A stretch of DNA of 64,000 nt, taken from contig JBGATK010000005.1 of assembly GCA_044229265.1 (NCBI GenBank), forward strand, positions 14,963 to 78,962. Reading direction: 5' to 3'. This DNA comes from Minisyncoccia bacterium (GTDB lineage: Bacteria; Patescibacteriota; Minisyncoccia; Phycocordibacterales; UBA9973). Shown piece by piece: positions 41,518 to 56,185 of this stretch. Made by a program: the position numbers and the translations under genes. The stretch's first letter is position 1, and the number at the start of each line of letters is the position of its first letter. The notes under the pieces are model-generated. The model made no database searches, was not told where the DNA came from, and saw only the letters and a program-made list of their open reading frames with translations.

Positions 41518-42747
41518 ATGCACAATCCATTTGAGAATGCCATGGCTCAGCTAGACAAAGTAGCTAAAATAAAAGACTTTGGTAGTGAATTTATAAACCA
41601 ACTACGTGCTCCAAACCGCGACATACGGATTTCTATCCCTGTAAAAATGGACGATGGCACTCAAAGGATTTTTGAAGGCTACAGAGTGGAATATAATGAC
41701 GCTCTTGGACCTTACAAGGGTGGCATTCGTTATCACTCTCTAACTGAAATCAACGAAGTCAAAGCTCTTGCTTTTTGGATGGCTATCAAATGTGCTGTAG
41801 CTGGCATACCTATGGGTGGAGGCAAAGGTGGCATTACTGTTGACCCGAAAGATTTATCCAAAGCTGAACTAGAAAGACTTTCTCGTGGCTGGGTAAAAAG
41901 ACTTTATGAAATACTTGGGCCACATAAAGATGTGCCTGCGCCGGATGTGAATACTACTGGTGAGATAATGAACTGGATGAATGATGAATACATGAAGCTC
42001 TCTGGCGAAAAAACTCTCGCTACTTTTACTGGCAAACCCCTTAGCTCTGGTGGATCAGAAGGCCGTGAGAGTGCTACAGGCCTCGGAGGATACTATGTTT
42101 TTAAAGCTCTGCAAGAAAAACTAGGCTTACCAGAAAAATGCTCTGTAGTTATACAAGGCTTTGGCAATGTAGGCTCTTTTGCCATGAAAAGCTTTGTAAA
42201 TGGAGGACATAAAGTCATGGCTATCTCAGACTCTAAAGGTGGAGTTTACAGTGAAGCTGGGCTTGATTTTGAGGCTTTGGTGGCACACAAAAAGGCTACA
42301 GGGTCGCTCGCAGACTATCCTGGTGCAAAAAATGTAAGTAATGAAGAACTGCTCGAAATACAGTGCGATGTGCTCGTGCCAGCAGCTTTTGAAAATCAAA
42401 TTACAGATAAAAATGCAAATAATATAAAAGCTAAAGTAGTGCTAGAACTTGCAAATGGTCCAACCACACCAGAGGCTGATGAAATACTATCTGGTAAGGG
42501 TATCGCTGTGATTCCTGATGTGCTCGCGAATTCTGGTGGAGTAACTGTCTCGTATTTCGAATGGGATCAAAATTTAAAAAATGAAAAATGGAATGAAGCT
42601 GATGTAAATATCAAGCTAGACGAAATCCTAAAAGATTCTGCAAGTAAAATTTTTGATATTTCAAAAGAACACAATACTACCCTGCGCAACAGCGCTTTTA
42701 TACTAGCCCTCGACAGAATTAAAGCAAAAACCCCGACGCATTTATAA
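41518..42747 (+). CDS. gdhA: Glutamate dehydrogenase (Glu/Leu/Phe/Val dehydrogenase family)
   Basis: KCAVAGIPMGGGKGG catalytic Lys/Gly-rich motif and NAD(P) GFGNVG motif. Confidence 0.9.
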   Translation: MHNPFENAMAQLDKVAKIKDFGSEFINQLRAPNRDIRISIPVKMDDGTQRIFEGYRVEYNDALGPYKGGIRYHSLTEINEVKALAFWMAIKCAVAGIPMGGGKGGITVDPKDLSKAELERLSRGWVKRLYEILGPHKDVPAPDVNTTGEIMNWMNDEYMKLSGEKTLATFTGKPLSSGGSEGRESATGLGGYYVFKALQEKLGLPEKCSVVIQGFGNVGSFAMKSFVNGGHKVMAISDSKGGVYSEAGLDFEALVAHKKATGSLADYPGAKNVSNEELLEIQCDVLVPAAFENQITDKNANNIKAKVVLELANGPTTPEADEILSGKGIAVIPDVLANSGGVTVSYFEWDQNLKNEKWNEADVNIKLDEILKDSASKIFDISKEHNTTLRNSAFILALDRIKAKTPTHL

Positions 42748-42779
42748 AAATGGTCGGGGAGCCGACTTAAACGTCGGCT
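42731..42779. repeat. CCCCGAC-family GC-rich double hairpin (copy A)
   Basis: CCCCGAC-(15 nt)-GTCGGGG immediately followed by AGCCGAC-TTAAAC-GTCGGCT. Overlaps the last gdhA codons and ends 10 bp before the GIY-YIG start. Confidence 0.6.
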
Positions 42780-42788
42780 TGTAATATA

Positions 42789-43049
42789 ATGCCGTGTGTT
42801 TATATATTAAAAAATAAAAATGGAAACTTTTATATAGGTAGCACTATCAATTTAGAAGTTCGTATAAAGCAACACTTATCAGATTATTGTAAAACAACAA
42901 AAAGATTGGGTGCCTACGAGCTGGTATTTCATCAAAATTATGAAAATATAAAAGATGCTAGAAGAATTGAATATAAATTAAAACAATTGAAAAGAAAGGA
43001 TTATATTGCTAATATAATAAAAGATGGTTTTATTAAGATAAAACCATAG
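42789..43049 (+). CDS. Small GIY-YIG nuclease family protein
   Basis: MPCVYILKNKNGNFYIGSTINLEVRIKQH... contains GIY(x10)YIG with a conserved Arg and Glu. 86 aa. Paralogous to 55364..55642. Confidence 0.8.
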   Translation: MPCVYILKNKNGNFYIGSTINLEVRIKQHLSDYCKTTKRLGAYELVFHQNYENIKDARRIEYKLKQLKRKDYIANIIKDGFIKIKP

Positions 43050-43052
43050 TTT

Positions 43053-43125
43053 GGGCGGTTAGCTCAGTTGGTAGAGCGCAATATTGACGTTATTGATGTC
43101 AGAGGTTCGAATCCTCTACCGCCCA
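43053..43125 (+). tRNA. tRNA-Val (anticodon GAC)
   Basis: Acceptor GGGCGGT/ACCGCCC, D-arm GCTC-AGTTGGTA-GAGC, anticodon stem CAATA/TATTG, loop TTGACGT, T-arm AGAGG-TTCGAAT-CCTCT. Starts 4 nt after the GIY-YIG stop. Confidence 0.75.
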
Positions 43126-43197
43126 CTAGAATTGTAATTAGCGGTTTATTCAAAACAAATAGCTTATCGCACACAGAAAATATGCTACTATAAGGAT

Positions 43198-54955: not shown

Positions 54956-55297
54956 ATGCGATCAGTTTTACATGCAAAAATTCATAAAGCCACAGTAACG
55001 GAAGCAGATTTGAGCTATATCGGTAGTATTACTATTGATCAAGAATTAGCCGAAAAGGTTGGCCTTTGGGATGGCGAAAAAGTCATGGTGGTTTCTAATA
55101 CCTCGGGTAACCGCCTAGAAACTTATGTAATCTACGGAGCTAGGAATTCTGGCATCATATGCATGAACGGCGCCGCAGCTCACCTAATAAAAAAAGGAGA
55201 TGAAATAATAATTATGGGCTTTGAACTTACAGATAAACCCATCAAAGCTACCAACATACTTGTCGATAAACAAAACAAATTTGTTAAGTTTTTGTAA
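54956..55297 (+). CDS. panD: Aspartate 1-decarboxylase (pyruvoyl-dependent)
   Basis: MRSVLHAKIHKATVTEADLSYIGSITID matches the PanD N-terminus including the Gly-Ser self-cleavage site. 113 aa. Confidence 0.9.
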   Translation: MRSVLHAKIHKATVTEADLSYIGSITIDQELAEKVGLWDGEKVMVVSNTSGNRLETYVIYGARNSGIICMNGAAAHLIKKGDEIIIMGFELTDKPIKATNILVDKQNKFVKFL

Positions 55298-55298
55298 A

Positions 55299-55373
55299 TG
55301 GTGCCGGGGGTGAGAATCGCACTCACGACCTATCCCTCTTCAGGGGAGAGCTCTACTACTGAGCTACCCCGGC
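55299..55373 (-). tRNA. tRNA-Phe-like (anticodon GAA), non-canonical features
   Basis: Minus-strand sequence GCCGGGGTAGCTCAGTAGTAGAGCT CTCCC CTGAAGA GGGAT AGGTC GTGAG TGCGATT CTCAC CCCCGGC A CCA. CCA is encoded. There is a C-U mismatch at 27-43, G at position 37 and G at T-loop position 55. Confidence 0.6.
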
Positions 55374-55642
55374 ATTTTTATTTTAACAAAACCATCTTTT
55401 ACTATCTTCTCTATGTAATCATGTCTTTTAAATTTTTTCAACCTTTTCTCAATATATCTTACCTCACTCAATGTTTCAAATTTTTGTGAAAAAACTAATT
55501 TTAATTTTCCCATCTTACTGGTTGAAGGTGTATAACCTCCATTATGATGCCTAATTCTTTCATCTATATCAGTAGTGCTACCTATATAGTAATTCCCCTT
55601 TTCACTTTGTAATATATATACGTATGGCATATATTTTAACAC
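55364..55642 (-). CDS. Small GIY-YIG nuclease family protein (paralog of 42789..43049)
   Basis: MPYVYILQSEKGNYYIGSTTDIDERIRHH..., ending in KDGFVKIKMPG. The last three codons and stop overlap nt 1-10 of the tRNA. An alternative start at 55630 gives MPYVYIL, as in the paralog. Confidence 0.8.
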   Translation of the reverse strand: MLKYMPYVYILQSEKGNYYIGSTTDIDERIRHHNGGYTPSTSKMGKLKLVFSQKFETLSEVRYIEKRLKKFKRHDYIEKIVKDGFVKIKMPG

Positions 55643-55644
55643 TG

Positions 55645-55698
55645 AGCCCCGACGCTTTCGGTCGGGATCCCGACTTTACGTCGGGGCTACCCCGGCAT
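55645..55698. repeat. CCCCGAC-family nested palindrome (copy C) plus a 13-bp duplicate of the tRNA 5' end
   Basis: AGCCCCGAC-GCTTTCG-GTCGGGA|TCCCGAC-TTTAC-GTCGGGGCT, then GCTACCCCGGCAT (55686-55698), which is identical to 55363-55375 at the tRNA 5' end. Confidence 0.6.
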
Positions 55699-55712
55699 AT
55701 ATGAATAATAGA

Positions 55713-55958
55713 TTAAGGCACTAAATCTTTTAATTTTTGAAAAGATGAATTGGTTTCTTTTACTGTGTTTTGCAATTGCTCTACAAAAGGTTGTAGAAAA
55801 TAAAAAGTACCAACTGAAACACCTACAATCAAAATCCAATAAAAAATCTTAAAAAATAGGTTCCATTTTTGGATGCCTCTTACTTTTTTAAGCATTTCAT
55901 TGTTCTCTTTTACTAATGCTAAAGTTTCCTCTAGCATTTGCTTTTCTTCTGTATCCAC
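55713..55958 (-). CDS. Small membrane protein, unknown function
   Basis: 81 aa with an N-terminal coiled/charged region and one hydrophobic helix. Confidence 0.35.
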   Translation of the reverse strand: MDTEEKQMLEETLALVKENNEMLKKVRGIQKWNLFFKIFYWILIVGVSVGTFYFLQPFVEQLQNTVKETNSSFQKLKDLVP

Positions 55959-56013: not shown

Positions 56014-56053
56014 ATGTTAAATTATATAAGGTTTTTTATTGTTTCGCCCTCAT

Positions 56054-56095
56054 AGCCCCGACGTAAAGTCGGGGAGCCGACAAGTATCGTCGGCT
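56054..56095. repeat. CCCCGAC-family double hairpin (copy B), solo copy upstream of tRNA-Arg
   Basis: AGCCCCGAC-GTAAA-GTCGGGG followed by AGCCGAC-AAGTATC-GTCGGCT. Same architecture as copy A. It ends 15 bp before the tRNA 5' end. Confidence 0.6.
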
Positions 56096-56110
56096 TTCAA
56101 TAGACAAAGC

Positions 56111-56182
56111 GTCCTTGTAGTTAAATGGATATAACTTCCCCGTCCTAAGGGGACATTGCAGGTCCGATTCCTGCCAAGGACA
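56111..56182 (+). tRNA. tRNA-Arg (anticodon CCT)
   Basis: Acceptor GTCCTTG/CAAGGAC, D-arm GTTA-AATGGATA-TAAC, anticodon stem TCCCC/GGGGA, loop GTCCTAA, T-arm GCAGG-TCCGATT-CCTGC (C at position 55). No CCA encoded. Confidence 0.7.
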
Positions 56183-56185
56183 CAA

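Follow-up and report, generated by a model that had tools for sequence, protein, structure and literature searches.

A candidate homing cassette with a small GIY-YIG gene at the 5′ ends of tRNA genes in Patescibacteria

Introduction

Transfer RNA (tRNA) genes are among the most conserved sequences of genomes. In bacteria, large islands that bear an integrase classically insert into them. A described system in which a small nuclease gene is linked to tRNA genes is SegB of phage T4, a GIY-YIG homing endonuclease that recognizes a conserved tRNA motif, located in the T-psi-C arm, and carries neighboring tRNA genes along (PMC2330249). Here we analyzed a stretch of 64,000 nucleotides (nt) from a Minisyncoccia bacterium (contig JBGATK010000005.1), referred to as the window, in which a gene for a GIY-YIG protein of 88 amino acids (aa) ends inside the 5′ end of tRNA-Phe(GAA) and is preceded by a GC-rich double hairpin and by a second copy of the tRNA 5′ end. 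An element of this kind, about 320 bp long and with a single gene for a nuclease of 86 aa, is found across the whole superphylum on the opposite (5′) end of tRNA genes. We consider it probable that it represents a small homing-type selfish cassette of Patescibacteria which sits on tRNA 5′ ends and invades or replaces tRNA genes by recombination.

The cassette resembles T4 SegB in that a GIY-YIG gene lies beside tRNA genes, is present or absent between close relatives and appears to be inherited together with neighboring markers, the tRNA included. As with the conserved tRNA motif of SegB, the choice of tRNA in Patescibacteria correlates with a conserved sequence, although the bias is towards the D-arm and not the T-psi-C arm. 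In contrast to SegB, the cassette resides in a bacterial chromosome and not in a phage; since only 4 weak relatives were detected in 2.9 million viral contigs and matches to PHROGs were generic, a phage origin was rejected. While Seg proteins are much larger and consist of two domains, the cassette protein of 86-88 aa is devoid of a DNA-binding domain, its open reading frame (ORF) is fused to the 5′ end of the tRNA so that both have the stop codon in common, and a double hairpin is placed inside a displaced tRNA fragment.

With islands and prophages that integrate into tRNA genes, the cassette has in common that it is inserted without loss of the tRNA and that a direct repeat of tRNA sequence is found at both ends. 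In contrast to these islands, it is the 5′ and not the 3′ end of the tRNA that is duplicated, the 323-bp insert encodes neither an integrase nor another recombinase, the GIY-YIG ORF being its sole coding content, the cassette is 30-300 times smaller, and the duplicate varies in extent and bears a hairpin. The initial annotation of the locus did not recognize it as a described type of element, and no description of the arrangement was found in the literature on GIY-YIG proteins, tRNA, Patescibacteria, UPF0213 and repetitive extragenic palindromic (REP) elements, the coverage of which is incomplete, so that this is not proof of absence. As far as found, the fusion of ORF and tRNA with a common stop codon, the tRNA remnant disrupted by a hairpin and the occupation of ten tRNA specificities are undescribed.

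Organization of the tRNA-Phe cassette

All coordinates given in the following are positions in the window, and the features of the Phe cassette are located on the minus strand. The intact tRNA-Phe(GAA) gene (55299..55373; detected by ARAGORN and with 64 bits by the Rfam tRNA model) overlaps with its nt 1-10 the end of the GIY-YIG gene (55364..55630), which encodes an 88-aa single-domain protein of UPF0213/Slx1-like type. The longest form of this ORF (55364-55642) matches the Pfam GIY-YIG domain at 6e-14, and because homologues begin with MPYVYIL (MP(Y/W)VYIL), the ATG at 55630 was taken as the real start. The stop codon TAG (55366-55364) is formed by nt 8-10 of tRNA-Phe; the 3′ end of the ORF reads ATG CCG GGG TAG, and these last three codons and the stop correspond to tRNA-Phe nt -2 to +10. 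The initial annotation had described a GIY-YIG gene of about 90 aa that ends within nt 1-10 of a tRNA, which agrees with our analysis, apart from the strand, which was corrected to minus.

Upstream of the gene, the 5′ end of tRNA-Phe is present a second time (ATGCCGGGGTAGC, nt -2 to +11; 55686..55698). This copy is contiguous with the native upstream flank, which up to this point is the same as in L086, an allele without cassette that is described below. The 13-bp direct repeat noted initially proved exact on re-inspection (GCTACCCCGGCAT at 55363-55375 and 55686-55698), and no third match was detected in the 64 kb even when two mismatches were allowed; in a control with shuffled sequences, two matches were obtained at this tolerance in 2 of 100 shuffles. 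The upstream copy is followed by the GC-rich double hairpin (55648..55685), CCCGAC-GTAAA-GTCGGG AT CCCGAC-CGAAAGC-GTCGGG, which lies between nt 10 and nt 11 of the displaced tRNA-Phe fragment. Its two CCCGAC/GTCGGG hairpins span 55648-55666 and 55669-55685, 17-55 nt 5′ of the ATG, and correspond to the nested palindrome that had been seen upstream of the GIY-YIG start. The rest of the displaced D-arm, (G)CTCAGT, equals tRNA-Phe nt 11-16 (55641..55647) and leads into an AT-rich spacer (GTTAAAATAT; 55631..55640) in front of the start codon, to which the spacer of locus L082 is similar. Read on the minus strand from 55698, the order is ATGCCGGGGTAG-C[hairpins, 38 nt]G-CTCAGT-GTTAAAATAT-ATG...ORF...ATAAAA-ATGCCGGGGTAGCTCAGTAGTAGAGC.... 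When the double hairpin is left out, 18 nt of the upstream copy match tRNA-Phe (nt -2 to +16), and therefore the hairpin interrupts a displaced partial duplicate of the tRNA-Phe D-arm.

An Rfam scan of the window returned tRNAs alone, with neither an intron nor another RNA family at the Phe locus. As the ORF lies upstream of an uninterrupted tRNA-Phe, an ORF inside a group I or group II intron was rejected. The tRNA-Phe of the window itself (55299-55373) has an odd D-loop, CTCAGTAGTAGAGC instead of CTCAGTTGGTAGAGC, and an odd T-loop, TGCGATT; the tRNA-Phe of locus L083 is canonical.

Filled and empty alleles of the same site

Near-identical copies of the 81-aa gene that adjoins the Phe cassette are present in other samples. 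One of these loci, L086 (SRR12487046), is 99.48% identical to the window over 4252 nt, up to nt 11 of tRNA-Phe. The alignment resumes past the cassette after an overlap of 13 nt, and the window carries exactly 323 extra bp, which is the segment of about 320 bp between tRNA-derived repeats that had been delimited initially. In L086 the 81-aa gene is directly followed by a tRNA-Phe identical to that of the window, with neither hairpin nor ORF (...ttattcatatATGCCGGGGTAGCTCAGTAGTAGAGC...). A bare tRNA-Phe is also found in L083, in which the neighboring protein is 73% identical. A second syntenic pair exists at tRNA-Thr, where L220 is empty, with a bare tRNA-Thr, and L082 and L089 are filled. In L082, an ORF 84% identical to that of the window and an almost identical hairpin lie behind rpsB-tsf at tRNA-Thr, and the cassette is flanked by GCCGCCTTAG, which equals the 5′ end of tRNA-Thr. 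Bare sites in related genomes are what the initial annotation had named as the check on a mobile or homing-type element that regenerates the tRNA end; L086 and the tRNA-Thr pair provide them and support this proposal. The cassette is mobile or exchangeable, as it is present in one and absent from the other of near-identical strains.

Polymorphism at one and the same site, by which free-standing homing endonuclease genes are judged, was thus found at the Phe locus, where the window and L087 are filled and L086 is empty at 99.5% flank identity. As a genetic element the cassette behaves like a free-standing homing endonuclease gene with a putative cleavage activity. Between the window and L086, a 10-nt indel and 8 single-nucleotide polymorphisms (SNPs) were located within 60 nt 3′ of tRNA-Phe, against a background of about 0.5%, and one more SNP lies 23 nt upstream of the junction. 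Across the three alleles compared, differences cluster in and beside the cassette as co-conversion would produce, and those 3′ of tRNA-Phe look like a co-conversion tract.

The third allele, L087 (DRR198493), contains a diverged cassette and a different tRNA-Phe allele. Of its 19 differences to the window, 18 are confined to fragment, hairpin, ORF and tRNA (55709 to 55306), five positions of the tRNA T-arm included, and the 770 nt upstream hold one difference; 3′ of tRNA-Phe, L087 is unrelated to the window and apparently lacks panD. The block of hairpin, ORF and tRNA differs between strains far more than its flank. Three alleles occur among otherwise almost identical strains. Hairpin, ORF and tRNA behave like a separately exchanged module, in which the tRNA, too, seems to move along with the cassette.

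The sample which provided the empty Phe site, SRR12487046, also contains a contig with a paralogue linked to tRNA-Val (see below). If both contigs belong to one strain, one member of the family leaves the site of the other unfilled. In the window and in L086, panD (54956-55297, aspartate decarboxylase) is located 3′ of tRNA-Phe, and in L083 a gene for HSP20 is found instead; as the presence of panD varies, the tRNA-Phe locus is also a breakpoint for other differences in gene content.

Recurrence at tRNA 5′ ends across Patescibacteria

The Phe-linked protein has 72 close homologues with 50-99% identity, all of about 86 aa and all from Patescibacteria, and a profile search yielded 2253 clusters at E<=1e-10, nearly all single-domain, with relatives of 85-130 aa. 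For comparison, 80 loci were taken from different Patescibacteria species-level genomes. A tRNA on the same strand was detected by ARAGORN directly after the ORF in 76 of them. In three further loci (L048, 440-796; L049, 3656-3903; L007, about 3270 onward) the ORF is followed by a tRNA-Asn 5′ end, which ARAGORN missed because the tRNA is interrupted: the tRNA-Asn extends from its 5′ end through the anticodon region before the interruption. Matches to a group I intron (Rfam Intron_gpI) were obtained in L048 (84.7 bits) and L049 (80.3 bits), in the latter about 300 nt 3′ of the tRNA end. L007, the contig of which stops about 250 nt past the tRNA 5′ end, gave no Rfam match and is suspected from its sequence alone to have the same arrangement. 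In one of the 80 loci the tRNA after the ORF is interrupted by a hairpin.

The stop codon of the ORF coincides with tRNA nt 8-10 in 39 loci, and in 22 the gap between ORF and tRNA amounts to -1 to +6 nt. Where TAG is not found at nt 8-10, as in several tRNAs for Arg, the ORF bears its own stop just 5′ of nt 1. The occupied tRNAs are those for Thr (25), Arg (14), Val (10), Phe (9), Ile (5), His (4), Lys (4), Asn (2), Ala (2) and Met (1); no tRNA for Ser, Leu, Gly, Pro, Gln, Asp, Tyr or Glu was among the occupied tRNAs of the 76 loci. The sequence T[AG]GCT[CT]A at nt 8-14 is present in 54 of 76 occupied tRNAs versus 14 of 57 unoccupied neighbors. The cassette is tied to tRNA 5′ ends and occupies many tRNA species, with a bias towards the canonical D-arm.

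It is also accompanied by a duplicate of the local tRNA 5′ sequence. Within 150 nt upstream of the ORF a double hairpin was found in 71 of the 76 loci, and the loci that lack it have a hairpin-bearing tRNA copy downstream, with the exception of L047, in which the contig starts 55 nt before the ORF. Usually, a copy of the local tRNA (from about nt -2 to 0 up to nt 10 or 15/16) is followed by the double hairpin and by a continuation of the D-arm, which in typical loci runs to nt 16-29 and is separated from the ATG by a short AT-rich spacer. In 32 of 66 loci the acceptor 7-mer in front of the hairpin agrees with the local tRNA at all 7 positions, compared with 0.5% in the control, and in 7 more it matches at 6 of 7 positions (non-local control, 5%). 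The part behind the hairpin tracks variants of the local D-loop, for example in L027, L029, L033 and L071. In L003, L004, L026 and others, the D-arm remainder before the ATG is often altered from TTGGTAGAGC to TTGGTAGAAT. The TTGGTAGAAT form resembles an extended -10 element (TGnTAnAAT) 1-10 nt before the start codon, which may indicate a leaderless or short-leader mRNA.

Against this background, chance or a faulty assembly at a repetitive tRNA is an extremely improbable source of the 13-bp repeat and the order of genes. Short contigs do often break at these loci, as in L082 and L219, which end in the tRNA, and the shuffle control, with two mismatches allowed, produced two matches of the 13-mer in the 2 cases mentioned above. 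However, independent assemblies from several samples (L001, L087) contain the arrangement, the design recurs in 80 species-level genomes, and the local acceptor sequence is copied in 32 of 66 loci against the control of 0.5%.

The genomic contexts differ among relatives, with the tRNA as the sole constant neighbor. In a neighbor-joining tree of the ORFs (86 aa), which is a weak tree, tRNA types are mixed and cluster in part. Strict lineages specific for one tRNA type, in which only allelic homing would occur, appear unlikely from the extent of mixing in this weak tree.

Variant arrangements and remnants of tRNA alleles

Several loci depart from the usual order. In L059, an intact tRNA-Ala is followed by the ORF and by a tRNA-Ala with a hairpin in the D-loop and a ruined acceptor strand, and L013 is similar. 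The hairpin-bearing tRNA copy is of full length in some loci, and in others as little as about 10 nt of the tRNA is duplicated. A dead tRNA copy is found downstream of the intact tRNA in L006, L011, L031 and L057; that of L057 carries extra hairpins in the anticodon stem, and that of L031 is a different allele from the tRNA linked to the ORF. In about 10 loci, the acceptor of the fragment is not that of the adjacent tRNA but occurs elsewhere as an authentic acceptor within this tRNA family. L088 consists of an array in the order fragment, fragment-hairpin, ORF, fragment-hairpin, tRNA, fragment-hairpin.

A recombination-based process that invades or replaces tRNA genes fits the variant anatomy and the remnants of alleles better than precise cut-and-paste does. 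A simple target-site duplication of transposase type was rejected, given the hairpin inside the upstream copy, the duplicate of 10 nt to full length and the position of the dead copy on either side. The repeat, which the initial annotation had read as the footprint of an element, is a copy of a tRNA end but not a simple target-site duplication.

On the 1.8-kb contig of L088, the array (1100-1777) comprises three near-identical units of fragment and hairpin and one without hairpin around one GIY-YIG gene and tRNA-Thr(GGT), and a second, divergent GIY-YIG gene adjoins tRNA-Met on the opposite strand.

The double hairpin as a dispersed element

The core CCGAC/GTCGG does not vary among 150 hairpin units, and the two outer pairs covary (C-G, T-A, G-C, A-T) and are complementary in more than 90%. 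Folded as RNA, the hairpin of the window reaches -33.6 kcal/mol (z = -3.0), with one long nested stem being preferred. It was rejected as an intrinsic terminator, as it has no T-run and a terminator scan found none.

An exact 25-mer of the window hairpin occurs in more than 120 metagenome contigs. In 120 of these (L093-L212), 10 copies adjoin a tRNA, 6 with and 4 without the ORF, and the other 110 lie near no tRNA and no GIY-YIG gene. The double hairpin thus exists in Patescibacteria as a dispersed palindromic element in its own right as well, and the assumption that it is specific to tRNA and GIY-YIG genes was discarded. Its flanks have the consensus AGT|hairpin|ACT, and hairpins are often nested within other hairpins. 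Consistent target duplications were not found at the hairpin copies, since 46 of 94 non-redundant copies have no flanking direct repeat of at least 7 nt; tRNA sites and tandem-repeat contexts account for most of the excess of longer flanking repeats among the 94. Relative to the rest of the same loci, the density of hairpin units is about 130-fold higher in the 140 nt that precede the ORFs.

Like REP elements and bacterial interspersed mosaic elements, the hairpins are short, GC-rich and dispersed palindromes that are often paired or nested, and one copy always lies beside a small nuclease gene. The AG that directly precedes the hairpin is reminiscent of the REP sequence GTAG, which is a resemblance alone. 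In contrast to REPs and their REP-associated tyrosine transposases (RAYTs), the enzyme is of GIY-YIG type and not an HUH Y1 transposase, the hairpin pair is found on the upstream side of the gene alone and always in one orientation, and the linkage to the tRNA D-arm is tight. Unlike miniature inverted-repeat transposable elements (MITEs), the hairpin copies have no terminal inverted repeats with a target duplication of fixed length. We know of no enzyme that mobilizes the double hairpin.

These data bear on an alternative that we regard as rather unlikely, in which the double hairpin is a mobile REP- or MITE-like unit and the GIY-YIG protein its structure-specific, RAYT-like mobilizer. Hairpins would then prefer AG|CT and sites resembling hairpin loops, a type of site universally provided by the tRNA D-arm (TAGCTCAG), and insertions into tRNAs would survive where a second, possibly partial, copy exists, which would leave duplicates beside the nuclease gene. 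The dispersal of the 25-mer away from tRNA and GIY-YIG genes, flanks that extend the palindrome and fit AG|CT targets, the frequent nesting of hairpins in the loops of others, the presence of several hairpins in one dead tRNA copy, even in its anticodon stem, and the accumulation upstream of ORFs are all in line with such mobility, and Slx1 proteins, the closest structural relatives of the GIY-YIG protein, cut branched and cruciform DNA. Yet, as copies outside tRNAs lack a consistent target duplication, insertion alone leaves the duplication of the tRNA unexplained, and ORF and tRNA meet at a precise junction also in loci without a recognizable fragment before the hairpin (the Val locus of the window, L116). 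Moreover, in the 64-kb window hairpins of this type are found at three tRNA genes alone (Phe, Val and Arg; both tRNA-Glu genes are without), and tRNA-Arg fragments that lack AGCT still carry a hairpin in the D-loop, so that their placement in the D-arm goes beyond an AG|CT preference alone. This alternative overlaps with the homing explanation and may be part of the same story.

The GIY-YIG protein

The protein belongs to the UPF0213/Slx1 branch of the GIY-YIG superfamily. Its Pfam match (PF01541, 6e-14) covers residues 5-73 and includes the motifs VYIL...YYIGS. In 24 sequences, Y5 is nearly invariant and Y15 and G17 are invariant, as are R25, H29 and E61, which are predicted to be catalytic. 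The AlphaFold2 model (predicted local distance difference test score 91) shows the order E3-9 E14-19 H22-30 E43-50 H54-67 H70-79, which is a GIY-YIG fold with a sheet of three strands between helices. All best Foldseek matches were GIY-YIG proteins (1zg2, 1ywl, followed by Slx1), and a profile search against the PDB gave 1zg2 (5e-12), 1ywl (1.2e-10) and Slx1 (about 1e-3). By sequence and fold, the nearest solved relatives are thus the UPF0213 proteins BH0048 and EF2693 and then Slx1, which are of the same size and single-domain as well. The 88 aa consist of the catalytic domain and one extra helix; the two-domain build with a separate DNA-binding domain is not present. In contrast to Slx1, no partner of Slx4 type is evident. 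NCBIfam, PADLOC and PHROGs returned weak generic matches to GIY-YIG or homing endonucleases alone, and a known defense system was rejected, the PADLOC matches being weak and generic.

The ORF is kept by purifying selection (dN/dS, the ratio of nonsynonymous to synonymous substitution rates, 0.02-0.28; 78 of 80 ORFs intact). This raises the possibility, which we judge to be very unlikely, that the GIY-YIG protein is a tRNA-linked nuclease beneficial to the host, for instance one expressed along with tRNAs for repair, recombination or RNA processing, and that fragments and hairpins, instead of marking selfish spread, are by-products of local rearrangement at tRNA loci prone to recombination. Such a role would suit the selection on intact ORFs, the large and uniform family of 2253 nearly all single-domain clusters, the invariance of the Val-linked copy in four samples and the non-mobile cellular nucleases within the UPF0213/Slx1 clade. 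A Slx1-type protein fused to a TrmH-like tRNA methyltransferase has been reported, which hints at a link to RNA (PMC1564403). On the other hand, a host gene of this kind is difficult to reconcile with a cassette that is present or absent between strains of 99.5% identity, with two cassette alleles at one locus, with the occupation of ten tRNA specificities and paralogues of 49% identity within one 64-kb stretch, with displaced tRNA remnants from foreign alleles, and with the lack of conserved synteny beyond the tRNA. The initial annotation had named a UPF0213/YhbQ housekeeping gene in fixed synteny as the contrary case; the assignment to UPF0213/Slx1 applies, but the cassette, unlike UPF0213/YhbQ housekeeping genes, has no fixed synteny, is tied to tRNA 5′ ends and hairpins and is polymorphic between strains, with empty sites. 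Through the cassette, the unexplained UPF0213/YhbQ family gains a concrete and testable biological context.

Proposed mechanism

In the homing explanation that we favor, the activity of the nuclease, its cleavage site and the role of the hairpin are predicted from sequence. The nuclease would cut an unoccupied tRNA gene, probably in or beside the conserved DNA that codes for the D-arm (TAGCTCAG-type), and the break would be repaired by recombination with an occupied allele, by which hairpin, ORF, tRNA and some flanking DNA would be copied into the recipient. The 5′ end of the resident tRNA would stay behind as a dead fragment bearing the hairpin, and with an intact tRNA downstream the host would lose nothing. 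The hairpin may be the DNA substrate of the nuclease, or a stabilizer that splits the direct repeat and the target site; it may also be an independent colonizer of dead tRNA copies.

ORF and tRNA are probably transcribed together, from the promoter that belongs to the tRNA. A promoter-like site, TTAAAA-17-TATTAT (55705..55733, minus strand), was identified by a consensus scan alone, in which the number of such sites in the region was not above shuffle expectation. Transcription from this site (55733..55705) is predicted to start at about tRNA nt -2 to +1 in the empty allele and at the left edge of the fragment in the filled one, and co-transcription of ORF and tRNA would accordingly be plausible. 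Because the stop codon lies in tRNA nt 8-10, cleavage by RNase P would strip it from the ORF, and translation of the nuclease and maturation of the tRNA would be alternative fates of one transcript. With the stop positioned inside the tRNA, it can be tested directly whether translation and processing by RNase P compete.

Several points weigh against this mechanism. The protein has no DNA-binding domain of the I-TevI or Seg kind, which leaves site specificity unaccounted for, and the intact downstream tRNA retains the putative D-arm target, so that the immunity of occupied alleles is unexplained. As tRNA types are mixed in the ORF tree, moves between tRNA species must have occurred; simple homing across tRNA species would, however, leave the recipient tRNA with an acceptor strand of foreign origin, and of several recombination schemes considered for moves that keep the acceptor stem, none was supported by data. 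A duplicate of about 10 nt to full length with the dead copy on either side is not the product of one clean reaction. Finally, the strong purifying selection fits a gene useful to the host equally well, and the Val-linked paralogue shows no polymorphism among four samples.

The cassette could also be a nuclease-driven drive of undescribed kind that replaces tRNA genes, a reading we hold to be quite unlikely. Here, a minimal Slx1-like enzyme acting on hairpins or cruciforms would plant the double hairpin in the D-arm of the resident tRNA, which would be killed, and the intact tRNA that the cassette brings along, fused to the ORF, would rescue the cell. Expression of the nuclease would be controlled by RNase P through removal of the stop codon. 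The host would then depend on the invader, as in a kill-and-rescue addiction.

If the homing explanation is true, the cassette is to our knowledge the homing system with the smallest enzyme, and it would provide a natural account of the turnover of tRNA alleles and of tRNA pseudo-fragments in Patescibacteria genomes. It would also be a source of assembly breaks and of ORFs mis-annotated as "hypothetical" or "excinuclease-like", and a candidate for a compact nuclease with specificity directed by a conserved motif or by structure.

Further loci of this design in the window

A second GIY-YIG paralogue (42789..43049, plus strand; identified by tblastn and in the ORF list) encodes 86 aa with 49% identity to the Phe-linked protein. 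It ends 3 nt 5′ of tRNA-Val(GAC) (43053..43126, plus strand; ARAGORN, Rfam) and is preceded by a double hairpin of the form CCCCGAC..GTCGGGG A GCCGAC..GTCGGC (42731..42778, plus strand), in front of which no clear tRNA fragment was found. The first stem of this hairpin overlaps the final codons and the stop of gdh, and the end of the encoded glutamate dehydrogenase, ..TPTHL and stop, is encoded by the first stem and loop (42728-42747); the insertion of the hairpin seems to have rewritten the C-terminus of gdh.

The Val-linked gene is present in the same context in three further samples. Across the four samples (including L217-L219), ORF and tRNA-Val (42789-43126) are without differences and the flanks differ by 1-1.5%, which could be due to a recent sweep, to gene conversion or to chance in 340 bp. 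All relatives of the Val locus that were found are filled, and the look-up returned no record of the 275-aa neighbor.

A version without ORF is located at tRNA-Arg (56046..56110, plus strand). Here the remnant GCCCTCATAG of a resident tRNA-Arg 5′ end (56046-56055) precedes a double hairpin (56056-56094), behind which the rest of the D-arm is decayed (56095-56110), and the whole is directly followed by tRNA-Arg(CCT) (56111..56183, plus strand; ARAGORN, Rfam). GCCCTCATAG before and TTTCAATAGA after the hairpin jointly resemble a tRNA-Arg 5′ region that is split by the hairpin. The tRNA-Arg of the window has the acceptor GTCCTTG, which is also unlike the upstream remnant, and differs in every arm from that of L083. 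In L083, GCCCTCGTAGTTCAATGG... follows directly after the same Arg flank, without hairpin, and the remnant GCCCTCATAG in the window adjoins this conserved flank in precisely the same way as the resident tRNA-Arg of L083 (GCCCTCGTAG...).

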